DNA of 32,000 bases from Burkholderiaceae bacterium (GTDB lineage: Bacteria; Pseudomonadota; Gammaproteobacteria; Burkholderiales; Burkholderiaceae_C). Under the pieces are notes generated by a model, which saw only the letters and a program-made list of their open reading frames with translations, was not told the origin of the DNA and ran no database searches. Numbering within the stretch: the first letter of the stretch is position 1; every line of letters starts with the position of its first letter. Made by a program: the position numbers and the translations under genes. Of this stretch, positions 6,503 to 21,140 are shown in pieces. The stretch lies in assembly GCA_965234775.1 (NCBI GenBank), contig OZ248562.1; one strand, 5' to 3'.

Positions 6503-7732
6503 TCAACTTCTGTAGTCGGCGTTGATGGTGACGTACTCGTGGCTGAAGTCACAGGTCCACACGGTGTCGGTGGCTGGACCGCGACCCAGCACCACCCGCA
6601 CCGTGATTTCGGATTGCTTCATGATGCGCTGGCCATCGGCTTCTTGGTAACTGGGGCTGCGCCCGCCGTTCACGGCCACTTGCACATCGTCCAGATACAA
6701 ATCAATGTGGGCTTGGTCCAAATCAGCTATACCGGCATAGCCCACCGCCGCCAAGATGCGGCCCAAATTCGGGTCGCTGGCAAAAAATGCGGTTTTCACC
6801 AAGGGCGAATGGGCAATGGCATAAGCCACTTGGCGGCATTCGGCCGCATCGCGCCCACCCTCGACGGTGACGGTGATGAATTTGGTCGCCCCCTCGCCAT
6901 CGCGCACGATGGCCTGGGCCAATTGGCGTGACACCTGCATCAAAACGCTGCGCAAGGCCTGGCCATCGGTTGAAGCCCAATCGGTGACCGTCGGGTGCTT
7001 GGCCTGCTGGGTGGCCATGACGATGAAAGAGTCGTTGGTCGAAGTATCGCCATCGACCGTTATGCGGTTGAACGACGCCTCGGCCAAATCATGGGCCAGT
7101 GCGTCCATCAAACCAGGGGCAATGCAGGCATCGGTGGCCACAAAGCCCAGCATGGTGGCCATGTTGGGGCGAATCATGCCGGCGCCCTTGCTGATGCCCG
7201 TGACCGTCACCGGCACACCCGACAGCATGACCTGCACGGAAAAGGCCTTGGCCACGGTGTCGGTGGTCATGATGCCGTGCGAGGCTTGCAACCAGTGGTC
7301 GGCATGGGCCGCCGCGATGGCAGCGGGCAAACCGGCCACGATGCGCTCGTGGGGCAGCGGTTCCATGATGACGCCGGTGGAAAACGGCAGAACCTGTTGC
7401 GGGTTGATGTGGAGCTGCTCGGCCAAAGCTGAGCACACCGCTTGGGCATCCAACAAACCTTGCGCACCGGTGCCTGCGTTGGCCACCCCAGTGTTGATCA
7501 CCAGCGCCCGGATGCCTTGCCCACTGGCCAAATGCGATCGGCACAACTGCACAGGCGCGGCACAAAAACGGTTTTGGGTGAACACACCGGCCACGGCAGC
7601 GCCAGGGTCGAGCAAAAACACGGTGAGGTCTTTGCGGTTGGCTTTGCGCACGCCAGCCTCGACGACCCCAATGCGCAAACCAGCCACCGGATGCAAATCA
7701 CCGGCCTGGGGGGGCAATAAATTCACAGCCAT
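6503..7732 (-). CDS. argJ: Bifunctional ornithine acetyltransferase / N-acetylglutamate synthase ArgJ
   Basis: Full-length ArgJ-like sequence with the autoprocessing site [14 protein letters not shown] and the C-terminus [12 protein letters not shown]. Confidence 0.95.
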
Positions 7733-7740
7733 TGTTTCAA

Positions 7741-7769
7741 GCCAGCTTGCCGTGGCAGTTTTTGAATTT
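7741..7769. repeat. Left direct repeat (att site) of the secA-inserted island; fossil copy of the secA 3' end
   Basis: GCCAGCTTGCCGTGGCAGTTTTTGAATTT is identical to 14463-14491. On the minus strand it encodes KFKNCHGKL plus the first two bases of the final Ala codon, followed by the third Ala base and TGA (7737-7739), then 4 nt and the argJ ATG. Confidence 0.9.
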
Positions 7770-8039
7770 CCACGGACTAAAGATTGGGCATTGATTTATA
7801 TAGATTTTTTTTGATAAAAAACAAGTATAAAACATTTGTCTAACAATCCACTAAAGTTGCCATAGCTTAATCATAGCGTGATTTGGGGTTGCACTGTGAC
7901 CATAGCTACGCTAAAGAATTACTATTCTCAATCAATAATCAGACACAAGATGAGTATAACTTTTCTGTGTTTTATTGATTTTTTGACATGATTTTTAAAC
8001 AGGAAATCAATCATTAAATCAACAGCTTAATAGGATTAG

Positions 8040-8056
8040 ATTGCACAGAGTGCAAT
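8040..8056. promoter_or_regulatory. Perfect palindrome ATTGCAC-AGA-GTGCAAT upstream of the HNH endonuclease gene (candidate operator)
   Basis: 7-bp arms read directly. It lies ~75 nt upstream of the ATG at 8132 and downstream of a TTGACA hexamer at 7983-7988. Confidence 0.35.
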
Positions 8057-8131
8057 ACGACATAAAACAAATACACACAAAGAAAGACTAATGAATTAGA
8101 ATTTACTACCTACATTGCTTTTGGTTAGCAT

Positions 8132-8776
8132 ATGCAAAACGATTTCGACGCATTCATTTCACACTTAAATCTTAGCGAAGTCAAGCTTAAAATGCTTAAG
8201 AGACTGTGGAATAGTGGAAATATTTTCCCAAAAGATTGGGTTAGAAGTAGTGAATTGTTAACCTTAACAAATCAGAAATATTTTGACCGACGACTACGAG
8301 AACTGAGAGACAGAGGTGGATTAGATTTGGAAACAAAGCAGATTAATGGCGAACATTGCTGGAGACTAAATTCCAATAATATTTCAAAAATCATCAATAG
8401 AACTTACTTAACAGCAAAACAAAAGATAGAAATGTTTGAACAAGCAAAACACACTTGTTCCATCTGCGGAAAATTTAGTTTAGCTGGAGTACGTGGACTC
8501 CAAGCAGATCATAGAGTTCCACTAACTCGAGGTGGAAGTGAAGAGCTTAGAAATTGGCAACCTATATGCAATGAATGCAATGTTGTCAAACGCAGACAAT
8601 GCCAAGACTGCACCTTAAATTGCGAAACTTGCAGTTGGGCTTATCCCGAAAAATCAAGCAAAAAATTGTTGATAAACATACCAAAAAATTTATCTCAAAA
8701 TCCCAAAATTAACCAACTAAATGACGAACAACTAGAAGCATTTTTTGTCCAATTACTTCGTAAAGATTTAGACTAA
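8132..8776 (+). CDS. HNH (His-Me finger) endonuclease, putative Type II restriction enzyme partner of the adjacent m5C methyltransferase
   Basis: C-terminal CSICG...ADHRVPLTRGG...NWQPICNECN...CQDC..CETC gives an HNH motif with CxxC zinc ligands. The N-terminal ~100 aa resemble a DNA-binding or winged-helix module (inference). Convergent with the MTase gene and overlapping it by 9 nt. Confidence 0.7.
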   Translation: MQNDFDAFISHLNLSEVKLKMLKRLWNSGNIFPKDWVRSSELLTLTNQKYFDRRLRELRDRGGLDLETKQINGEHCWRLNSNNISKIINRTYLTAKQKIEMFEQAKHTCSICGKFSLAGVRGLQADHRVPLTRGGSEELRNWQPICNECNVVKRRQCQDCTLNCETCSWAYPEKSSKKLLINIPKNLSQNPKINQLNDEQLEAFFVQLLRKDLD

Positions 8777-9751
8777 GCAAAACAGATTGTCTTCAATAGT
8801 TCTCTTTTGTTTTTTCTTCTTAAGTGCATTGATGATTGCTAAGCCAACAGCCCTTGCTACTGGGGGTGGAAAAGCATTACCAATTTGACGATAAGCAGAA
8901 GTCTTCTTTCCACAAAAATGCCACTCATCAGGGAATCCTTGAATACGTGCAGCCATACGCAATGTTAATCTTGGAGTGAAATCTAAAGGCGCGTCACTTC
9001 CAGGACCTACATCAACAATTCCCTTACCATCAACCTTGAGGTCTAACCATTGTCTCTTAGCCCTCGTTGGTCCTAAATCAGCACCGCCATGCTTCTTACT
9101 TCCACCAACAAGTGTTGGCGCAATCTTGTTTGAATAATTTAGCCACTTATCTGCACCTTGCCAACCATTTTCAGCAATCAAATCAAAAAGTGCATCCCCT
9201 ACTGTTACAACTTTATCTTCACCCTTAGGCCAAGTAAAATATTCAGCATATTCATCCTTAATCGCTACCAATATAAATCTTGGTCGCAATTGAGGAACAC
9301 CATAACTAGATGCATTCAATACACGCCAATCCGATTTGTAGCCCAGCTTAGAAAGTGTTTGTAAAATCCAAGCCCTATAGTTTTCAAACTTCGGAGTGGA
9401 TAAACCACGTACATTCTCTAGTAAAACAGCTTTGGGATTACATTGCTCTATAAGTCTTAGTGCGTCTGGAAATAAATCTCTATCATCTAAATTCCCTAAT
9501 TGCTTACCAGCCAAGGAGAAAGGTGGGCAAGGAACACCACCAGCAAAGAGATCAACACCATTAAATTTTTCAGCACTGAAAGATTTCACATCCTGTTCAA
9601 CTACATTCCACTTCGGGCGATTGTGTCTAAGTGTTTGACATGCATGTGCATCTATCTCTACTGTCGCTAAATGATTAAAGCCAGCCATCTCCAATCCTAA
9701 AGCTTGTCCACCAGCGCCTGCACATATCTCTATAGATGTAAATTTAGACAT
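8768..9751 (-). CDS. DNA (cytosine-5)-methyltransferase
   Basis: Motif I EICAGAGGQALG, motif IV GGVPCPPFS, motif VI LLENVRGL, motif VIII QLRPRFILVA, motif X GNAFPPPVA. Start taken at MSKFTSIE (9751). Confidence 0.9.
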   Translation of the reverse strand: MSKFTSIEICAGAGGQALGLEMAGFNHLATVEIDAHACQTLRHNRPKWNVVEQDVKSFSAEKFNGVDLFAGGVPCPPFSLAGKQLGNLDDRDLFPDALRLIEQCNPKAVLLENVRGLSTPKFENYRAWILQTLSKLGYKSDWRVLNASSYGVPQLRPRFILVAIKDEYAEYFTWPKGEDKVVTVGDALFDLIAENGWQGADKWLNYSNKIAPTLVGGSKKHGGADLGPTRAKRQWLDLKVDGKGIVDVGPGSDAPLDFTPRLTLRMAARIQGFPDEWHFCGKKTSAYRQIGNAFPPPVARAVGLAIINALKKKKQKRTIEDNLFCLV

Positions 9752-9762
9752 AAAAATGTTGA

Positions 9763-9814
9763 TTGAAAGAGGCTTGCACAGCTTATTATAATGGATACAA
9801 TACAAGATTGTATC
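9763..9814 (+). promoter_or_regulatory. Sigma70-like promoter (TTGAAA-18 nt-TATAAT) followed by an 8-bp perfect inverted repeat GATACAAT-N5-ATTGTATC
   Basis: -35 at 9763-9768, -10 at 9787-9792, inverted repeat at 9794-9801/9807-9814. It sits in the 92-nt divergent gap between the MTase gene and the H-NS-like gene. A TATAAT also reads on the opposite strand at the same place. Confidence 0.5.
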
Positions 9815-9843
9815 TCTCTAAACATTGGATAAAGGAACGAAAA

Positions 9844-10074
9844 ATGAGTAAAGTAGCTGAAATCAAAGCACGAATTGCTGCTGATCAAGAAGCACTAAAA
9901 GATGCTATTAAAGGTGAGAAGACAGAAGCACTAAAGCGAATTCGTCAAGAAATTAAAGACTTTGGTTTTAAGACAAGTGACTTCAAAGGTGTTCTTGCTA
10001 CACGCGCCAAGCGTAGTCCCAACGGTACACGTGCAGCTAAAAATGTTGCAGCTAAGAAAACCTCAAAAGGCTAA
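9844..10074 (+). CDS. Truncated H-NS-like protein (N-terminal oligomerisation-type coiled coil with a basic tail; no canonical C-terminal DNA-binding domain)
   Basis: MSKVAEIKARIAADQEALKDAIKGEKTEALKRIRQEIKDFGFKTSDF resembles the H-NS/BpH3 family N-terminus and the ..YG.t..D. linker pattern. It ends after a Lys/Arg-rich tail with no TWxGRG-type motif. AAGGA RBS lies before the ATG at 9844. Confidence 0.55.
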   Translation: MSKVAEIKARIAADQEALKDAIKGEKTEALKRIRQEIKDFGFKTSDFKGVLATRAKRSPNGTRAAKNVAAKKTSKG

Positions 10075-10077
10075 TAT

Positions 10078-10377
10078 ATGATTGTCGTAAAACACAACTC
10101 AAGTCGTAAGAGTTTAAACTTTAACGACAACTATTTTGAAGTTACGGGTGTGCCTATGACTATCAATAACACCAATGTGATAAGCGATGCGCTCAATGAC
10201 AAATTATCAATATATGGCGATGAAGCTTTTTCACCAAAAGCTGACGGAAGTTCCTACAATATTTCTGTAAGAGGATTGGCATCACAAACAATTTTTACTG
10301 ATGTTAGTGCTCTACAAGCGTATATTTTAGACAAGCTTAATTCTTGCCTATCAAAGTTAGAAGAACGGAATAATTAG
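10078..10377 (+). CDS. Hypothetical protein (99 aa), apparently co-transcribed with the H-NS-like gene
   Basis: ORF starts 3 nt after the upstream stop. No recognisable motif. AT-rich codon usage consistent with the island. The start codon is uncertain. Confidence 0.4.
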   Translation: MIVVKHNSSRKSLNFNDNYFEVTGVPMTINNTNVISDALNDKLSIYGDEAFSPKADGSSYNISVRGLASQTIFTDVSALQAYILDKLNSCLSKLEERNN

Positions 10378-10949
10378 ACCAACTCAATCGCTTTGCGTTT
10401 CATCGCGTCATTGACGTCTATGTAGCACTGGGTGGTTGACAGATTAGCATGCCTTGCGATGCTTTGTAGCACCCTAACGCTGACACCTTTATCAGCCAAG
10501 TTGGTAATTCCTGTGCGTCTTGGACTGTGACTTGAACCACCTGAAATGGCACAATTGCGGAATAAGTGGTGAAAGTGTTGGCATAAGGTATTGCTGCTCC
10601 AGCCTTCCGCTGGACGCTTTTGTGAGTAGAAAAGCTTGTCTGTGATTTCCTTGTATGGCACAGCCTTAACGTAAGTCTGTAGTTCTCGGCGTAGCTTATC
10701 ACTCACAAACACAGTACTGCCCTTGCCTCCCTTTGTCTGTTCTGCAGTCAAGTAAATCTCAGTTTTAACCTTGCCCTCTGCATCAAGTACATCTGCGTAG
10801 CGTAGTGCCGCACATTCTTTGACACGTAACATTGCGTACAGCATTGTCAAAAACATTGCTCTATTACGCTCAGCGTGGGGACGTGTAGCCACATAGTCCA
10901 GCACTCTACGTATTTCTTGTGCTGTGAGTACTTTTGCTTGTTTGGACAT
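10374..10949 (-). CDS. Small tyrosine recombinase (catalytic domain only, ~191 aa)
   Basis: Catalytic residues are readable: R in LRVKE, K in TKGGKGSTVFV, HSPRR (H-x-x-R), RHANLSTT (H) and QCY (Y). AGGAGA RBS lies 6 nt before the ATG at 10949. No N-terminal core-binding or arm-binding region. Confidence 0.85.
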   Translation of the reverse strand: MSKQAKVLTAQEIRRVLDYVATRPHAERNRAMFLTMLYAMLRVKECAALRYADVLDAEGKVKTEIYLTAEQTKGGKGSTVFVSDKLRRELQTYVKAVPYKEITDKLFYSQKRPAEGWSSNTLCQHFHHLFRNCAISGGSSHSPRRTGITNLADKGVSVRVLQSIARHANLSTTQCYIDVNDAMKRKAIELV

Positions 10950-11087
10950 TAGTGCTCTCCTAAATGTAAGTTTACTAATGCGAACAGTGTATTTTCTTTG
11001 TTTCTTAATTCCTACCTCTTTTTTACTTTGTTGATTCAAGTTATTTTCCTTAATGATTACGCCAGGTTAGCGTGTGTATAACAATAA

Positions 11088-11117
11088 ACCAAAGCTTTTA
11101 GCAATTAGCTTTGGTTT
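11088..11117. terminator. Perfect 10-bp stem hairpin AACCAAAGCT-N10-AGCTTTGGTT with T-rich flanks on both strands
   Basis: Read directly. It lies ~140 nt upstream of the small recombinase start, followed by TTTGTATTT on + and TTTATTGTT on -. Confidence 0.4.
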
Positions 11118-11160
11118 TGTATTTATTGGAAATACTGTGTGATTGCGACTTAATTAAGCA

Positions 11161-11296
11161 AGCTTGCGTATAAGCCCTGTACGCTGTTGCAAGCTGCGCC
11201 AGCTATCCAAGCCTAGCTCAGCTTGTTTTGTGCGTTTGTAGCTTGTTTAATTCAGCTTGCTTGTGTGCTTTGCTTTGTCGATTAGCTTGCGTAAGC
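11161..11296 (+). repeat. Iteron-like cluster of five same-strand AGCTTG motifs; the outer two extend to AGCTTGCGTA(TA)AGC
   Basis: AGCTTG at 11161, 11220, 11240, 11254 and 11284. The plus strand here is strongly G+T-rich. Inverted AGCTTGC/GCAAGCT at 11161-11167/11189-11195. Confidence 0.45.
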
Positions 11297-11481
11297 ACTA
11301 CCCTATTGCTCCTATGTAGACAACTCTGTTGTTTGATGTTGCGCTGTAATGTTTGGACGCAGTTAGCCATTTGTATGTGTGTTACTTGAGAACACATTGA
11401 TAGCGAAACTTTGTTTCGCTTGCGTCTTCGCTTACGCTCAACGCATTTTTCTTCTCTTAATTTTATTTGTGTTTTGACTTT

Positions 11482-11551
11482 TAATGCTCATTACTAGGAA
11501 GCACAAGCCACGCCCTGTTAAAGGGCGTAGCTTTAGCTAATGCTCATTACT
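11482..11551 (+). repeat. 14-bp direct repeat TAATGCTCATTACT (x2) flanking a 7-bp-stem hairpin ACGCCCT-GTTAA-AGGGCGT
   Basis: Copies at 11482-11495 and 11538-11551. Hairpin at 11510-11528. Confidence 0.5.
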
Positions 11552-11986
11552 GAGGGTTAACAACTGATATACACACAACTTGATTGATTACAAGAAAGGT
11601 AGGTTTTGCTATCACCTTTTATGTGCTTGCCTTACGCAACACACTCACAGCCTATATCAGTAGCTTTGTGGTGTGTTTATGGGTTGGATTGTGGCAGTCC
11701 CATTCACTTTCAGCCTATACATTTTCGTACTTGCTTACGTTCATACATCTCTGTATTACCAACCTGTACAACTTCGCAAACGTTTCTACGCAATGGCGTG
11801 ACGTTTAAGGCATCCAACGGTTAAATTGGGTAGTGCGATGAGGCTAACTATGAGAGAGTTAAATTGCTTACCGTCACACATCAGAACGGATTTCGCGGCA
11901 CTATTACAGTCGGCGTGCTAACCTTTATATCTCATTTATACCTTTATTTATGCGAAACCAAAGAATAGATTAAATTTTTCTTCTGG

Positions 11987-12015
11987 TTGACCTTAAAAAA
12001 GTCTGAAGTTACATT
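11987..12015 (+). promoter_or_regulatory. Candidate sigma70 promoter for the 12046-13026 gene pair (TTGACC-17 nt-TACATT)
   Basis: Hexamers at 11987-11992 and 12010-12015, ~30 nt upstream of the AAAGGAG RBS and the ATG at 12046. Confidence 0.4.
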
Positions 12016-12045
12016 AATAATTCACTTAACAAAAGGAGTTCTGCT

Positions 12046-12483
12046 ATGTCAGCAATTGCTAAATTGAAGCTTGTTTCTAGCAAGCGTGAACGTTTTCTTA
12101 GTCCAACTGTATCTCGTCGTCATAAACTAGCAGACAAGTTGGATGAGCAGCTTGCTCTTTGTCAAGCACAAAAAAATGGTGATGTTTACGCACCCAAGCG
12201 TATTAAGACCATAACCAAGCCAGATGGTGAGCGTGTACGTGTAGAAGCTGTCAAGCGTGTTAAAGAGTGGTTTTGGACCAATAGCAATGGAAAGATTAAC
12301 TTGGCTGTGCGTTATGGCAGCAAGACTTTGGAGCTTGGCAAAGGTAAAAACGCCATTGAACTCAGTACTGGTGATGAACTTATCAGCACCTTAGTGCTGC
12401 TTAAAGATGCTGTAATTGCTGGTGAATTGGATGAAGCTATCAACAACGCAAGTGATAAGTTACGTGCTGGCTTTGCTAAATGA
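12046..12483 (+). CDS. Hypothetical protein (145 aa), conserved-looking island protein of unknown function
   Basis: Strong RBS AAAGGAG. Basic N-terminus and KRVKEWFW...GKINLAVRYGSKTLELGKGKNAIEL core. No catalytic motif recognised. Confidence 0.7.
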   Translation: MSAIAKLKLVSSKRERFLSPTVSRRHKLADKLDEQLALCQAQKNGDVYAPKRIKTITKPDGERVRVEAVKRVKEWFWTNSNGKINLAVRYGSKTLELGKGKNAIELSTGDELISTLVLLKDAVIAGELDEAINNASDKLRAGFAK

Positions 12484-12491
12484 TTGATTAA

Positions 12492-12514
12492 GGACTGGCT
12501 TTTATTGCCAGTCC
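12492..12514 (+). terminator. Intercistronic hairpin GGACTGGC-TTTTATT-GCCAGTCC (attenuator or partial terminator)
   Basis: 8-bp perfect stem 9 nt after the stop at 12483. No clear downstream T-run. Confidence 0.35.
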
Positions 12515-12555
12515 ATTCTCCTATTCATGGCTAAATATAAGAATAGGAGATGACT

Positions 12556-13026
12556 ATGCGACTTTATGAAATTGCTGACGCTAAAGCACAACTAGAATTG
12601 CTACGAATAATTATTGACAACACTTGGTCAGCAATAGCACAACAAGCAGAACAGCAGAAACGTTCGGACGCGGAACGTAAGGCACTGGCTAAGCTTAAGC
12701 CACGTACTAAGAAATCACGTAAGGGTACAAGCATTCGTATACCTACACCTCCACCACTACCACCAAAGCAGCCTCAAGTCCAGTTAGCTAAACAACCACC
12801 CTCTTCACTTAACAACCTCAACCCTAACGCCTTAAACGCTGTAAAACCCCCACCTACCAATCCTCAAATTAAACCGTCGGCTACAATTACAGCAATCAAA
12901 CCTACGCCTGCGTTTATTCCTCAACCCAAGCCTATAGTCACTACATCCATCAAACCATCTAACGGTTTAAAATTGAGCACTTTAGAAAAAGAAGAAGATT
13001 GGTACGCTAAGTATAGAAATAATTAA
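12556..13026 (+). CDS. Hypothetical protein with N-terminal helical segment and long Pro/Gln/Lys-rich low-complexity region
   Basis: AGGAGA RBS lies 5 nt before the ATG at 12556; the track start at 12550 overlaps the RBS. PTPPPLPPKQPQVQ...KPPPTNPQIKP repeats. Confidence 0.55.
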   Translation: MRLYEIADAKAQLELLRIIIDNTWSAIAQQAEQQKRSDAERKALAKLKPRTKKSRKGTSIRIPTPPPLPPKQPQVQLAKQPPSSLNNLNPNALNAVKPPPTNPQIKPSATITAIKPTPAFIPQPKPIVTTSIKPSNGLKLSTLEKEEDWYAKYRNN

Positions 13027-13099
13027 TTCTATTTTAAAATAAACTTCTTTAAGGATGTAATACGTTTTCTCAAATTGCGTAATACTTCTGCCGTTTATC

Positions 13100-14365
13100 T
13101 TACCCACCTAGCTTAGTAGCAAGTGCTAAAGGTGTTGCTTGTTTACCATAGTATTTCTCAATTATTTGCACACTCGTACCCATATTTCTTGCTATATCAA
13201 ATATTGGTATCCCACGTTTTATCATCATTACAGCGTAAAAATGTCGCAAGCTGTACAGCGTATATTTCTCTTTGTCACGGCTTTCTGTCAAGCTTATTGA
13301 CTTAAGCAAAGCATTGAATTGGTCGATGAGTGTGACTATTTTGTTGCCATCGTACATACAGAAAAACCAACCGTCTGTATCTTTTAATTTTCTTTTTGGA
13401 CTTCGGACTTTTCTAACTTCCGCCTCTTGTGTTCTTACAAGATTCCGCCGTCTTACTCGTTCTACATATCTAACAACATTAGTTCGTGGAATAACAACTC
13501 TTCGTCCAGTCTTCCCACGCACTGAAAACATATAGTTTTTTCTTCCTAGCTCATCCTTAAATTCAACAATATCGTTGTCTTTTAAGTTGTTGGCTTCACC
13601 AACTCGTATGCCACTGTTAGACAATACCAGAACGTAATCTCTTAGCAGTTCCTTTGTGTACTTCCACTCCTTATTCTTTGTATCTTTTATGCCCTTACGC
13701 ATTCCTTTTATGATTTCCCAATACTCAGCTACTGTAAATGTTGGACGAACAATAGCTCTTTCTGCATTAAATCTGTATGTTGGCAGCTGTGTCTGTCCTC
13801 TGTATCCACGCTCATAAGCAAACTTTATCAGCGTCTTTCCTAGTGTCATCTCCCACTCTAATGTCTTATCAGCTGGGTTTATTTTGTGGTTTCGTGGACG
13901 CTTATCCTCTGCCATTCGGTGGTAATAATCTTTACGCCAGGGGATGTAATCTTGTAGAACAGCGTTGTCCATATTACTTACACTTTTTGTACCGCAGTAC
14001 TCTCTCCAAAACTTTGCTACTCGCTTAATTTGACGAAGCATATGAATACTTGTCTGCTGCCTTGAGCTTGAGTTCGTCTTAACGTCTAGACTTTTTTGGT
14101 ATTGACTTTGCCTAAGTGCGATGTATTCATCTATTACATCGCCAAAAGATTTTTGCTGTAGTGGCAGTCCTTCTCGCTGTTTATATTCCATCTCGTGGAG
14201 ATATTTCAAGGCTAATTTACGTGCCTCTTCTACCTTACGTGTCTTTAAGGTTTTGTAAATGTACTTCCTATCGCCTTTGTAAAAGCGTGCCTGATATATG
14301 CCGTTGCGACAGAAGATAAGGACTTTGCCGTCCTCTAATTCTTCCTTAAATTCTGTGCTTAACAT
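13100..14365 (-). CDS. int: Tyrosine integrase of the island
   Basis: C-terminal catalytic domain: SGIRVGE (R), GKTGRRVVIP (K), YSLRHFY (H-x-x-R), and the EKYYG tyrosine. Long N-terminal arm/core-binding region. Located directly inside the right att repeat. Confidence 0.9.
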   Translation of the reverse strand: MLSTEFKEELEDGKVLIFCRNGIYQARFYKGDRKYIYKTLKTRKVEEARKLALKYLHEMEYKQREGLPLQQKSFGDVIDEYIALRQSQYQKSLDVKTNSSSRQQTSIHMLRQIKRVAKFWREYCGTKSVSNMDNAVLQDYIPWRKDYYHRMAEDKRPRNHKINPADKTLEWEMTLGKTLIKFAYERGYRGQTQLPTYRFNAERAIVRPTFTVAEYWEIIKGMRKGIKDTKNKEWKYTKELLRDYVLVLSNSGIRVGEANNLKDNDIVEFKDELGRKNYMFSVRGKTGRRVVIPRTNVVRYVERVRRRNLVRTQEAEVRKVRSPKRKLKDTDGWFFCMYDGNKIVTLIDQFNALLKSISLTESRDKEKYTLYSLRHFYAVMMIKRGIPIFDIARNMGTSVQIIEKYYGKQATPLALATKLGG

Positions 14366-14458
14366 TTGCCTAACCTAGTCCATTAATCAACCTTTTGCCT
14401 AACAATTGTAAAACATCTTTCAAACCCTGTAAACCGCGTAACCTGTTGTTTTATAAGG

Positions 14459-17215
14459 CTAGGCCAGCTTGCCGTGGCAGTTTTTGAATTTTTTGCCGCT
14501 GCCGCAGGGGCAGGGTTCGTTGCGACCCACTTTGACCAGCCCCTGCGGGGCCAACTCAAATTCGCTGCTGGGACCGGCATAGGTATAGGCCTCGCCGGTT
14601 TCGCTGGGCGCGGTATAGGTGACGTTGCTGATCTTCTCGGCCTGCGCTTCCAAGGCTTGGGCAGCCTCGTCAATTTGCTGCTGCGATTGGATTTGCATGT
14701 TCATCAAGATGCGGGTCACTTCGGCCTTGACCTGGTCCAGCAACTGACCAAACAACTCAAATGCCTCGCGCTTGTACTCTTGCTTGGGTTGCTTTTGTGC
14801 ATAACCACGCAAGTGAATGCCTTGGCGCAAGTAGTCTAGGGAAGACAAATGTTCGCGCCAATGGTTATCGATGCTTTGCAACAACACCGCCCGCGTGAAG
14901 GGCGTGAGCTGACCAACCCCCAGATCAGCCACCTTGGTGGCAAAAGCGGCGTGGGCAGCGCTGACCACTTTTTCGACCACATCTTCATCAGACACCGATG
15001 TGGCGCCCTCGATCCAAGCTTGCAAACCCAGATTGATTTGCCACTCCATGGCGAGCGCGCGCTCCAAAGCGGGAATGTCCCACTGCTCTTCAACCGACTC
15101 CACCGGGACAAATTGGCGCACCAAGTCGGTGAAGCAGCCTTCGCGCAAGCTGGTGATTTGCGCGCTGAGGTCTTGGGCATCCAAGATGTCATTGCGCTGC
15201 TGATAGATCACCTTGCGCTGGTCATTGGAGACATCGTCGTACTCGAGCAACTGCTTGCGCACATCAAAATTGCGAGCCTCCACCTTGCGTTGAGCGCTTT
15301 CGATGCTGCGGGTGACGATACCGGCCTCAATCGCCTCGCCCTCTGGCATTTTCAGGCGGTCCATGATGGACTTGACCCGATCGCCCGCAAAAATGCGCAT
15401 CAGCGGATCGTCCAGGCTCAGGTAAAAACGCGATGAACCAGGGTCCCCCTGGCGGCCCGAACGGCCCCGCAACTGGTTGTCGATGCGGCGCGACTCATGG
15501 CGCTCAGTGGCGATGATGCGCAAACCGCCTTGCGCCACAACTTTGTCGTGATCCAACTGCCACTGGGCACGCAGGGCCTGCTCTTGCTGTGCGTGCTGAT
15601 CGGCGGGGATGGCCGCATCGGCTTGCATCGCAGAAATCATTTTTTCAAGGTTGCCGCCCAACACAATATCGGTGCCGCGGCCTGCCATGTTGGTGGCAAT
15701 GGTGATCATCTGGCTGCGCCCAGCTTGGGCCACGATGTCGGCTTCGCGCTCGTGTTGTTTGGCGTTGAGCACCTGGTGCGGCAGCTTGGCTTGGGTTAAC
15801 AAGGCGGAGATGATTTCCGAGTTTTCAATCGAGCTCGTGCCCACCAAAACCGGTTGGCCGCGCTCGTGGCAATCGCGGATGTCATCGATGGCGGCGGTGT
15901 ATTTTTCTTGGGTGGTTTTGTACACCCGATCGAGTTGGTCTTCGCGCCGGCTGATGCGGTTGGGCGGGATGACCACGGTTTCCAAACCGTAAATCTCTTG
16001 AAATTCGTAGGCCTCGGTATCGGCCGTCCCGGTCATGCCAGAGAGTTTGCCGTACAGGCGGAAATAGTTTTGAAAGGTGATGGACGCCAGGGTTTGGTTT
16101 TCGGCCTGGATGTTCACACCCTCTTTGGCTTCAACCGCTTGGTGCAAGCCATCGCTCCAACGCCGCCCCGACATCAAGCGCCCGGTGAACTCGTCGACGA
16201 TGACGATCTCGCCGTTTTGGTTCACATAGTGCTGATCGCGGTGGTAGAGGTGGTGCGCACGCAAAGCAGCGGTCAAGTGGTGCATCAGGCTGATGTTGGC
16301 GGGGTCGTACAACGACGCGCCTTCGGGCAGCATGCCCATCTCCACCAACAAGCGCTCAGAATTTTCATGGCCTTGTTCGGTGAGGAACACCTGGTGTGAT
16401 TTTTCATCCACCGTGAAGTCGCCCGCCTTGGTGACGCCTTCGCCAGTGCGCAAATCTTCTTCACCCTCTTGGCGCTGCAACTTGGGCACCAACTGGTTCA
16501 TGGCCACATAGCGCTCGGTGTGGTCCTCGGCTTGGCCGCTGATGATCAGCGGCGTGCGCGCCTCATCGATCAGGATGGAGTCCACCTCATCGACGATGGC
16601 GTAATGCAACTTGCGCTGCACGCGATCGGCAGGCTCGTAGACCATGTTGTCGCGCAAGTAATCAAAACCAAACTCGTTGTTGGTGCCGTAGGTGATGTCG
16701 CTGGCATAAGCCGCTTGCTTTTCTTCGCGCGACATTTGCGGCAGATTAACGCCCACACTCAAGCCCAAAAAGTTATACAAGCGCCCCATCCACTGCGCAT
16801 CGCGCTGGGCCAGGTAGTCGTTGACCGTCACCACATGCACCCCGCGACCGGTCAAGGCATTCAGGTAAACAGCCAGGGTGGCGGTGAGGGTTTTGCCCTC
16901 ACCGGTGCGCATTTCAGCCACTTTGCCATGGTGCAGTGCCATGCCACCGCTGAGCTGCACATCAAAGTGACGCATCTTCATGATGCGCTTGGAGCCTTCT
17001 CGCACAACAGCAAAAGCTTCAGGCAACAAATCGTCCAATGGGGTGCCGCCAGCCACTTGCTGTTTGAAGGCCTCCGTTTTGGCTTTGAGGGCTTCATCAG
17101 TCAGTTGCTCTAGGCTTGGCTCCAAGGCATTGATGCGTGCCACGGTCTTGCTGTACTGTTTGAGCAAGCGCTCATTGCGACTGCCGAATATCTGGGTCAA
17201 AAATTTAAAGGCCAT
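14459..17215 (-). CDS. secA: Preprotein translocase ATPase SecA
   Basis: Starts [25 protein letters not shown]-like motor motifs ([38 protein letters not shown]) and the C-terminal zinc motif [14 protein letters not shown]. The longer track ORF (to 17317) is an upstream extension. Confidence 0.95.
14463..14491. repeat. Right direct repeat (att site), forming the functional 3' end of secA
   Basis: Identical to 7741-7769. Here it is followed on the minus strand by island-derived C+TAG, so the island supplies the stop codon now in use. Confidence 0.9.
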
Positions 17216-17656: not shown

Positions 17657-17732
17657 TGGTGCCGATTATCGGATTCGAACTGATGACCTACCGCTTACAA
17701 GGCGGTTGCTCTACCAACTGAGCTAAATCGGC
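17657..17732 (-). tRNA. tRNA-Thr (anticodon UGU), 76 nt with encoded CCA
   Basis: Hand-folded cloverleaf: acceptor GCCGATT/AATCGGC, D arm GCTC-AGTTGGTA-GAGC, anticodon arm ACCGC-CTTGTAA-GCGGT, T loop TTCGAAT. One A-C mismatch in the T stem. Confidence 0.9.
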
Positions 17733-19739: not shown

Positions 19740-21140
19740 TCAGTGGGGGGTGAAGGTCACGCGGTCCGGCACGGGCTTGGTCTCACCCAAACGACTCCAC
19801 CAAGGCATCAGGAGGAAAAAGCCAAAGTAAAACAAGGTACCCACTTGTGAAACGCGCTCTCCGATGGGTGAAGGCGGCTGCACACCCAGGTAGCCCAGGA
19901 TCACAAAGTTGATGACGAAAATGGCGTACAGGTATTTGTGCCAATCGGGACGGTAGCGGATCGACTTCACTTCGCAGTTGTCCAACCAAGGCAGGAAGAA
20001 CAAAATAATGACCGCGCCACCCATGACCACCACGCCCCAGAACTTGGCGTCGATCTTCAGCATCAAGCCCATAATGATGACCGCAGCGGCCACCACGGCA
20101 GCTTTGAGGACGCTGGCCATTTTGATGCGGGTGACACCCAAATAGGCGGCAATCACCACACACAGCACCAGCGCATACATCATCTCAGTGGTGATGGCGC
20201 GCAGCATCGAGTAGTAAGGGGTGAAATACCAAACGGGGGCAATGTGCAGCGGTGTTTTCAGGGGATCGGCTGGGATGAAGTTGTTGTACTCCAAGAAGTA
20301 GCCGCCCAGTTCAGGCGCGAAAAACACAATCGAGGTGAAGATCACCAAGAAGCCAGTCACGCCCAAGATGTCGTGCACGGTGTAGTAAGGATGGAAAGGA
20401 ATGCCATCCAAGGGGCGGCCTTTATCGTCTTTGTACTTCTTGATCTCGACGCCATCGGGGTTGTTGGAGCCCACCTCGTGCAAGGCGATGATGTGGGCCG
20501 CCACCAAACCAAGCAGCACCAAAGGCACGGCAATGACGTGGAAGCTGAAGAAGCGGTTCAAGGTGGCATCACTCACCACGTAGTCGCCACGGATCAACAA
20601 TGCCAAGTCGGGGCCAATCACGGGCACAGCAGCAAACAGGTTCACGATCACCTGGGCGCCCCAATAAGACATTTGCCCCCAGGGCAGCAAGTAACCCATG
20701 AAGGCTTCGGCCATCAGGCACAAGAAGATGGCGCAGCCAAACAGCCACACCAACTCGCGCGGCTTGCGGTATGAGCCATAAATCAGGCCCCGGAACATGT
20801 GGAAATAAACCACCACAAAGAATGCCGAGGCGCCGGTGGAGTGCATGTAGCGGATCAGCCAACCCCAAGGCACATCGCGCATGATGTACTCGACAGAGGC
20901 AAAGGCCTGAGCTGCATCGGGCTTGTAGTGCATGACCAAGAAAATGCCCGTGACAATTTGGATCACGAGCACAAACAAGGCCAAAGAGCCGAAAAAGTAC
21001 CAGAAGTTAAAGTTTTTGGGCGCGTAGTACTCGCTCAAATGCTCTTTGTAGAGCTTGGATGCCGGGAAGCGGTTGTCCACCCAGTTGAGCAACTTGTCAC
21101 CCACGCTGGCGTTGGGGGAGATTTCTTTGAATTCAGCCAT
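19740..21140 (-). CDS. petB: Cytochrome b subunit of the bc1 complex
   Basis: Polytopic membrane protein with typical cytochrome b motifs (RYMHSTGASAFF, PEWYF-like PVWYFTPYY). Confidence 0.95.
   Translation of the reverse strand: MAEFKEISPNASVGDKLLNWVDNRFPASKLYKEHLSEYYAPKNFNFWYFFGSLALFVLVIQIVTGIFLVMHYKPDAAQAFASVEYIMRDVPWGWLIRYMHSTGASAFFVVVYFHMFRGLIYGSYRKPRELVWLFGCAIFLCLMAEAFMGYLLPWGQMSYWGAQVIVNLFAAVPVIGPDLALLIRGDYVVSDATLNRFFSFHVIAVPLVLLGLVAAHIIALHEVGSNNPDGVEIKKYKDDKGRPLDGIPFHPYYTVHDILGVTGFLVIFTSIVFFAPELGGYFLEYNNFIPADPLKTPLHIAPVWYFTPYYSMLRAITTEMMYALVLCVVIAAYLGVTRIKMASVLKAAVVAAAVIIMGLMLKIDAKFWGVVVMGGAVIILFFLPWLDNCEVKSIRYRPDWHKYLYAIFVINFVILGYLGVQPPSPIGERVSQVGTLFYFGFFLLMPWWSRLGETKPVPDRVTFTPH

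Follow-up and report, generated by a model that had tools for sequence, protein, structure and literature searches.

A probable site-specific integrative element at the 3' end of secA in a Burkholderiaceae bacterium

The island between secA and argJ

The window analysed here is a stretch of 32,000 nt from contig OZ248562.1 of a Burkholderiaceae bacterium (GenBank assembly GCA_965234775.1), and it carries an AT-rich island of 6.7 kb, with its own integrase gene, between secA and argJ. A first-pass annotation, made from the letters alone, had described this block as an integrative island inserted into the 3' end of secA: bracketed by a perfect 29-bp direct repeat, sharply lower in GC content than its surroundings, with a repeat that codes for the end of SecA within its zinc motif and a full-length tyrosine integrase just inside the right repeat copy. 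The follow-up analysis bears out each part of this description, its coordinates included, and repeats, empty site, the link between integrase clade and target, and duplicated cores all agree with it. The features that define the locus are the following:

6503-7732, minus strand: argJ, the host gene directly after secA in unoccupied chromosomes
7741-7769, minus strand: attR core, the distal 29-bp copy, followed by the original secA end GCT TGA, 4 nt and the argJ start
13100-14365, minus strand: integrase, a divergent tyrosine recombinase of 421 amino acids, which starts 98 nt inside the right repeat
14463-14491, minus strand: attL core, the integrase-proximal 29-bp copy, encoding the last secA codons
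14472-14488, within the attL copy: the family-wide 17-bp core TTCAAAAACTGCCACGG
14459-17215, minus strand: secA, intact; Pfam finds every SecA domain in it, the C-terminal SEC-C zinc motif among them; 17215 is the likely start, and the raw open reading frame (ORF) reaches 17317

Two exact copies of the 29-mer GCCAGCTTGCCGTGGCAGTTTTTGAATTT, and no others, are present in the window (7741-7769 and 14463-14491), and a shuffled window gives no match to it even with three mismatches permitted. The window profile runs at a GC fraction of ~0.57-0.63 on both flanks versus 0.34-0.45 at 8001-14500, and the block has an overall GC content of 40% versus 60% for the chromosome. Both the ORF reading and Pfam place the repeat within the SEC-C motif, which spans residues 932-950 of the 952-residue secA ORF, that is, its last 19 residues. 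At the integrase-proximal end, the secA stop codon TAG (14459-14461) is derived from the island, whose contribution to secA is limited to this codon and the third base of the last alanine codon. At the other end, the left repeat copy lies 8 nt upstream of the argJ start codon (ATG at 7732, minus strand). Written as AAATTCAAAAACTGCCACGGCAAGCTGGC, the 29-mer is flanked by A and C in attL, G and T in attR, A and T in attB, and G and C in the reconstructed attP. Exact-sequence look-ups of SecA in its 952- and 918-residue versions gave no match, and an Rfam search of 7000-15000 with E values up to 0.1 found no RNA family.

To look for unoccupied sites, a degenerate pattern composed of the secA tail, one repeat copy and TGAAACAATGGC of the argJ start was scanned on a metagenome collection, and it returned four independent Joint Genome Institute (JGI) metagenome contigs (L085-L088) with the predicted empty secA-argJ site. 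When the two flanks of the window are joined at one repeat copy to give a synthetic empty site, this sequence and the contigs are 96.8-97.4% identical, each contig has only one copy of the repeat, and the predicted attB is reproduced base for base. The alignments remain collinear where the flanks meet and extend over as much as 4960 bp, so some chromosomes of this species-level population lack the 6.7-kb block.

The insertion leaves the SecA protein of the window unchanged, with the sequence ending KLA* in the occupied window and in the empty contigs alike. Of 12 bounded islands, 11 carry a SecA tail equal in codon number to the native one, and in four, the window included, the tail residues are identical to the native ones. 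The P' side of the element supplies a look-alike of the secA tail together with a stop codon and thereby keeps the essential gene intact.

Additional hints come from the Logan assembly of sample ERR15093871, in which the island forms a separate contig (L104) of 6751 bp that starts (1-29) and ends (6723-6751) exactly with the 29-mer; the argJ-side contig (L081, 1-30) also begins exactly with it. Logan assembles with k=31. Since the 29-bp repeat is shorter than k-1 at this setting, contig breaks at the repeat edges point to alternative junctions, which suggests that attB and attP junctions coexist with attL and attR in the reads of this sample and that the element may still be active.

Taken together, positions 7770-14462 and one repeat copy very probably constitute a small site-specific integrative element that is neither a phage nor conjugative. 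In the proposed mechanism, its own heterobivalent (lambda-type) tyrosine integrase would insert the element into the DNA of the SEC-C motif at the secA 3' end.

The integrase clade and its SEC-C target

The integrase matches Pfam Phage_integrase (PF00589) at 29.1 bits, with a cut-off of 27.1, and residues R254, K285, R374, H375 and Y405 are invariant across its family. Its AlphaFold (AF2) model, with a predicted local distance difference test (pLDDT) score of 81.6, begins with a sheet-plus-helix domain (four strands and one helix, residues 7-65), which is followed by a helical domain for core binding and then by the catalytic domain. The structural matches of this model are Tn1549 Int, XerH, XerA and full-length lambda Int (E=1e-8 to 1e-7); the alignments, made with the whole model, run to 415-438 columns for full-length lambda Int (1z1b, 1z1g, 5j0n). 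By sequence, XerA was the sole match in the PDB (E=2.6e-4). More than 1000 homologues of the integrase, almost all of them unnamed, are present in a large protein collection.

A scan of species-representative genomes (one per species) with the integrase gave 80 loci, among which 63 evaluable ones have an integrase at least 42% identical. A secA gene ends just upstream in 55 of these 63 loci, with a distance from core to integrase start of 111-182 nt in 53 of the 55 and of ~710-735 nt in the other two. Seven loci show the core only, either on a short contig or at a junction internal to a tandem array, and one is a fragment with neither. The hosts belong to the Betaproteobacteria (Comamonadaceae, Polynucleobacter, Dechloromonas) and to the Alphaproteobacteria (Rhodobacteraceae, Acetobacteraceae, Hyphomicrobiales, Sphingomonadales and others). 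Besides the window, 14 other loci (L001-L063) have a second core copy 1.7-11.2 kb downstream, always as a direct repeat in the same orientation. The expectations raised by the first-pass annotation, namely empty secA-argJ sites with one repeat copy in relatives, integrase homologues that abut secA and repeats at homologous junctions, are thus all realised.

The association with secA does not extend to more distant integrases. None of the 10 loci with relatives at ~30% identity lies at secA, and nine of them adjoin tRNA-Arg, tRNA-Cys or tRNA-Leu genes. Specifically, the integrase genes in L069-L079 are found 190-270 nt downstream of tRNA-Arg(CCG), tRNA-Cys or tRNA-Leu genes. Some of these loci also encode the small recombinase or the DUF6641 protein known from the window element, which points to a broader family of elements as the origin of the SEC-C-targeting clade.

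Within the clade, one locus separates the motif from the gene. In Candidatus Aalborgicola (L007, counted above as core only; integrase 58% identical), the target is a UPF0149/YecA-like gene (9061-9901; Pfam UPF0149 and SEC-C) that ends in CYCGSGKKYKKCHGQ, with the core duplicated 11.1 kb downstream at 20998-21014. Because this element sits in a yecA-like gene, the true target is the DNA that encodes the SEC-C zinc motif rather than secA as a gene. In Escherichia coli, secA and yecA both end in TATAAGCAGTGCCATGG-like sequence. The YecA-like gene of L007 is apparently split over two frames.

The core follows the pattern T[AT]Y AAR NNN TGY CAY GG (codons F/Y-K-x-C-H-G). All its occurrences share the secA orientation, and every locus has one copy at the end of secA. 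When the two copies of a locus are paired, similarity is lost abruptly at position -1 and beyond position 16; between these limits, positions 0-7 agree in 15 of 15 pairs and only the wobble positions 8, 11 and 14 ever differ. The identity that matters spans ~17 bp (TWC AAR NNN TGY CAY GG), and the 29 bp of the window represent an unusually long case. The element-side flank of the distal copy reads CCGTGGCAA or nearly so. This is TGCCACGG in reverse complement, and attP therefore has an inverted-repeat core with a spacer of ~10 bp. In one sister element, an attP reading TAC is inserted in a host secA reading TTC, which leaves CAAGMA as the stretch that never differs between partner sites and as the likely overlap region. 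The integrase would bind the inverted-repeat core CCGTGGMA-N10-TGCCACGG and exchange strands within its spacer.

Joining the two element ends reconstructs attP, and its two arms contain the following predicted sites:

7770-7879, minus strand: P arm, conserved with sister elements
7770-7775, P arm: CCGTGG, the inverted partner of core TGCCACGG
7826-7833, P arm: degenerate second arm-type site GTTTTATA
7837-7844, P arm: arm-type site GTTAGACA
14356-14462, minus strand: P' arm, with a site resembling that of integration host factor (IHF), AAACAACAGGTTA, at 14439-14451
14407-14414, 14396-14403, 14367-14374 and 14356-14363, P' arm: arm-type sites GTTDDRCA, the last overlapping the integrase start codon

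The GTTDDRCA sites stand at offsets of +57, +68, +97 and +108 after the core and of -78 and -67 before it, all in one orientation and in alpha- and betaproteobacterial elements alike. Their density is 13.1 per kb at the island ends versus 0.32 per kb inside (~40-fold), and the same offsets dominate across 65 P' arms, 46 of which also match the loosely read IHF consensus WATCAANNNNTTR at +20. This anatomy would be that of a lambda-type heterobivalent integrase, which in the circular form of the element would assemble on two GTTDDRCA sites on the P side and four on the P' side, with IHF possibly bending the DNA at the site near the core. The predicted arm-type site over the integrase start codon also hints at autoregulation.

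The island encodes a second tyrosine recombinase, with an ORF of 221 amino acids, and the possibility that this small protein rather than the 421-residue one integrates at secA deserves attention: its catalytic signature is complete by eye and it is conserved across the family. The architecture of the loci nevertheless makes this very improbable. It is the 421-residue gene that lies consistently 111-182 nt from the core, the two wider-spaced loci aside, and whose start codon is overlapped by arm-type sites, whereas the gene of the small recombinase shifts position within islands. A minimal element (L053) has the large integrase and DUF6641 and lacks the small recombinase, which, furthermore, also accompanies the tRNA-targeting outgroup and so does not track the target.

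Evidence for movement between hosts comes from a protein (P0003) that is 89% identical to the window integrase and is encoded on many contigs, including L089-L098. The P0003 element follows a Comamonadaceae-like secA in L089, L090, L093, L094, L096 and L098 and an alphaproteobacterial secA in L091, L092 and L095. The C-termini of the two host SecA proteins are 45% identical, compared with 99.9-100% identity of the integrase genes and 98-99% identity of the conserved element genes over 4 kb, and the cargo downstream of the small recombinase varies between contigs (type I or type IIG restriction-modification, others). An assembly chimera at the 17-bp core is unlikely because the junctions come from independent assemblies. 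The sequences show the same element in distant hosts and its spread across bacterial classes. Contig L097 contains at 2230-2372 an attP-type junction (P arm, core, P' arm) that corresponds to either an excised circle or a tandem array. Tandem arrays at the site are seen in L024 (20999) and L048/L050, and junctions of P arm, core and P' arm internal to arrays occur in L035 (38) among others. A separate observation concerns L048 (7034-9868). Here a 2.8-kb remnant that includes a degenerate integrase fragment comes first, and the second core then has before it at least 60 nt identical to the real secA end in place of a P arm, an arrangement for which simple tandem integration does not account.

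These data also bear on the alternative of an insertion that is fixed and does not move, or of a hypervariable intergenic region, flanked by a repeat that arose by duplication or chance. The data offer nothing in its favour, and its probability is negligible given empty sites at 97% flank identity, a chance expectation of zero for the repeat, an architecture shared by dozens of genomes from two classes, and the occurrence of one and the same element in different hosts.

Cargo, conserved genes and routes of transfer

Between the attachment sites, the island contains the following genes and regions in addition to the integrase:

8132-8776, plus strand: HNH-type type II restriction endonuclease, 214 amino acids, cargo
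8768-9805, minus strand: C5 cytosine DNA methyltransferase, cargo; the 327-residue gene call on L104 puts its start near 9751
9844-10074, plus strand: small basic protein of 76 amino acids, partly conserved in sister elements, no family match
10078-10377, plus strand: ORF of 99 amino acids, not conserved, no family match, converging on and overlapping the end of the small recombinase gene
10374-11039, minus strand: small tyrosine recombinase, catalytic domain only, ORF of 221 amino acids, conserved across the family
11040-12045, no strand: divergent intergenic region of 1 kb with CTTTGGTTT motifs
12046-12483, plus strand: DUF6641 protein, 145 amino acids, conserved across the family
12550-13026, plus strand: proline-rich protein, 158 amino acids, conserved only in the closest sister elements

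The endonuclease and methyltransferase genes converge and overlap at 8768-8776. PADLOC identifies them as REase_II (E=1.5e-13) and MTase_II/C5 methylase (E=1e-129 to 1e-159), and Pfam as HNH and DNA_methylase, and the cargo is a type II restriction-modification pair. Sisters with the same conserved genes deliver other restriction-modification types or surface proteins. Where the integrase is 97% or 89% identical, the sister element carries restriction-modification of type I or type IIG, and among 65 cargo ORFs of 13 bounded islands Pfam identified further restriction-modification and GmrSD genes as well as Sel1, porin, RTX and sulfotransferase genes. The 76-residue basic protein has a helical N-terminus; a reading of it as a truncated H-NS-type protein, which would have been of interest for an AT-rich island in a GC-rich host, was dropped for lack of a Pfam or NCBIfam match.

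At the other extreme, a Novosphingobium metagenome-assembled genome contains a minimal element of 1.87 kb (L053, 9853-11743) with only integrase and DUF6641 between the core copies. A 1.73-kb remnant with a truncated integrase is present in L063. Across the fetched loci, tblastn gave 36 matches to the small recombinase and 29 to DUF6641. The small recombinase probably starts at M31 (position 10949), which yields a protein of ~191 amino acids, and its best family matches are Xer-like. DUF6641 has no meaningful sequence match in the PDB, its AF2 model (pLDDT 68) gave no Foldseek match below E=1, and the literature searched yielded no mention of it; its position makes it a candidate for a directionality factor or a regulator.

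Four copies of the motif CTTTGGTTT fall within 2 kb of the island: two form an inverted pair, 10 nt apart, upstream of the small recombinase gene (11086-11117), one lies upstream of DUF6641 (11955-11963) and one inside the 76-residue gene (9960-9968). These copies lie within blocks conserved with sister elements, and the motif itself is kept in the closest sisters only. In the ~690 bp at 11248-11938 there is no ORF of at least 75 amino acids, Rfam gave no match, and nothing resembles the sister elements, whose corresponding segments carry ORFs of 192 and 147 amino acids. The inverted CTTTGGTTT motifs raised the idea that the small recombinase might drive an invertible switch of the fimS kind; seven sister contigs show no inverted variant, and the motif is confined to the closest sub-clade.

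Homology to sister elements stops exactly at the stop codon of the small recombinase, where the cargo segment begins, and resumes at the ~140-bp P arm. Homologous recombination between conserved flanks could exchange the cargo in this manner, as could a second site-specific system. Exchange by the small recombinase is thus one possible cause, and homologous recombination between the flanks would give the same pattern. A more elaborate scheme, which is rather improbable, would make the element a two-recombinase vehicle: the integrase would dock at SEC-C DNA, the small recombinase and CTTTGGTTT would form a second system that swaps cargo or flips an 830-bp promoter region, and DUF6641 would be a new directionality factor. 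In this scheme, cross-class spread would be explained by the conservation of SEC-C DNA beyond the Alpha- and Betaproteobacteria.

The remaining alternatives concern the nature of the element and its route between cells. A prophage remnant or phage satellite resembling a phage-inducible chromosomal island (PICI), with helper-dependent packaging and transfer, would fit its small size, the integrase at one end, the lack of transfer genes of its own, several small conserved ORFs of unknown function and the match of the HNH and methylase genes to PHROG families. Yet PHROG matches are limited to the integrase, HNH, methylase and two families of unknown function, and neither the window island nor the 65 cargo ORFs of the 13 islands include a capsid, terminase, portal, primase or repressor family. 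In addition, 50,697 phage records contain no relative of the integrase, and the best match among the 2.9 million contigs of IMG/VR is partial and 32% identical. A phage origin is therefore quite unlikely; both gene content and the lack of close relatives of the integrase among phage, plasmid and IMG/VR sequences led to the rejection of the prophage, satellite and integrative and conjugative element (ICE) readings.

An integrative mobilisable element that uses the conjugation machinery of a co-resident plasmid or ICE via an unrecognised origin of transfer (oriT) is a less remote prospect, although still a doubtful one, and is compatible with the preferred explanation of a small site-specific integrative element. 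To reach hosts among both the alpha- and the betaproteobacteria, the near-identical element needs a vehicle with a broad host range, and a 1-kb non-coding region with conserved inverted repeats lies among the conserved genes. However, searches of the window island and the same 65 cargo ORFs found no relaxase, coupling protein, type IV secretion system (T4SS), capsid, terminase or replication family, and plasmid records hold only distant relatives of the integrase, at most 31% identical.

Several points weigh against the site-specific integrative element itself. The integrase scores barely over its Pfam cut-off, and the family-invariant Y371 and T397 replace two histidines that are usual in tyrosine recombinases. 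The arm-type and IHF sites, as well as the crossover position, are read from sequence conservation alone, and Pfam, NCBIfam and PHROGs gave no family match for an excisionase of the Xis or AlpA type. The contig data contain neither an excised circle nor a restored attB of the window element itself, and the contig-break argument depends on k=31 in Logan. Finally, no transfer or replication genes were found in the island to account for its movement between cells, and no oriT was identified in it, though no oriT-recognising search was applied; the latter point counts against a mobilisable element as well.

Relation to known integrative elements

The first-pass annotation had known of no description of the secA 3' end as an attachment site, and in line with this, the literature searched, with the TIGER/Islander database and the original TIGER paper outside its scope, describes neither secA nor SEC-C DNA as an att site. 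TIGER places 43.4% of 1.75 million mapped islands in protein-coding sequences (PMC12424338), and such islands may be catalogued there without comment. What differs here is the SEC-C-motif target in secA and yecA, together with a distinct integrase clade, three conserved genes and the spread across classes. The findings point to a new class of attachment site, in which ~17 bp that encode a zinc-binding SEC-C motif are recognised by motif and not by gene. The DNA of this motif is conserved across bacterial classes, which fits the near-identical element in alpha- and betaproteobacteria, and these islands appear to carry restriction-modification and other accessory genes across classes among freshwater and marine bacteria. 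With its compact attP (~250 bp), the integrase is a candidate tool for targeted insertion into unmodified genomes of many Proteobacteria, because its docking site sits in an essential gene that nearly all Proteobacteria carry. DUF6641 and the catalytic-domain-only recombinase, both conserved, become testable for the control of recombination. If the two-recombinase scheme were true, the integrase would be a candidate broad-host-range landing-pad tool.

Ends of protein-coding genes such as prfC, guaA and yicC are established integration targets. Further examples are SGI1 at the trmE 3' end, dusA islands, Tn5253 in rbgA and PAISt at the bacA 3' end (PMC8409611, PMC6079316, PMC4057263). The window element resembles these islands in a dedicated integrase by one att site, short direct repeats, one repeat within a conserved gene that remains functional after insertion, and variable cargo; it differs in its SEC-C-motif target and in an integrase whose nearest relatives outside the clade, at ~30% identity, sit at tRNA genes. 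Unlike SGI1-type elements, it has no mobilisation genes, and it is set apart from the dusA, trmE, prfC, guaA and yicC integrase clades by its target gene. Closer in general character are the 'NonPI' islands of TIGER, which are non-phage and non-ICE and include restriction enzymes among their cargo (PMC10936790). These islands are likewise small and integrase-bearing, with restriction-enzyme-type cargo, and secA is not mentioned in either report (PMC10936790, PMC12424338).

With respect to lambda Int and its attP, the likeness lies in the three-domain model, the inverted-repeat core, predicted arm sites in both arms and an IHF-like site by the core, whereas the sequence is distant, the arm-site pairs are spaced by 11 bp with one site over the integrase start codon, no Xis homologue was found and the element is not a phage. 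The small recombinase, in turn, recalls FimB/FimE-type recombinases in its length (~190-220 amino acids), in consisting of the catalytic domain only and in the inverted CTTTGGTTT copies that flank the adjacent 830-bp promoter region. Membership in this group is not supported, as seven sister contigs show no inverted segment, the best matches are Xer-like and the match to NCBIfam tyrosine-type DNA invertase models is weak (E=1.7e-6, far below the cut-off).

Finally, islands at tRNA and tmRNA genes with P4- or lambda-type integrases share with the window element an attP copy of the target 3' end that restores the target, an integrase gene that adjoins the att site and reads away from it, and the formation of tandem arrays. 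In contrast to these, the target here is a protein-coding zinc-finger motif, in which frame, tail length and stop codon must be kept. The window also contains a target of the classic kind: its sole tRNA gene, tRNA-Thr(TGT) at 17657-17732, lies on the same strand ~340-440 nt upstream of secA, yet is unused by the island.

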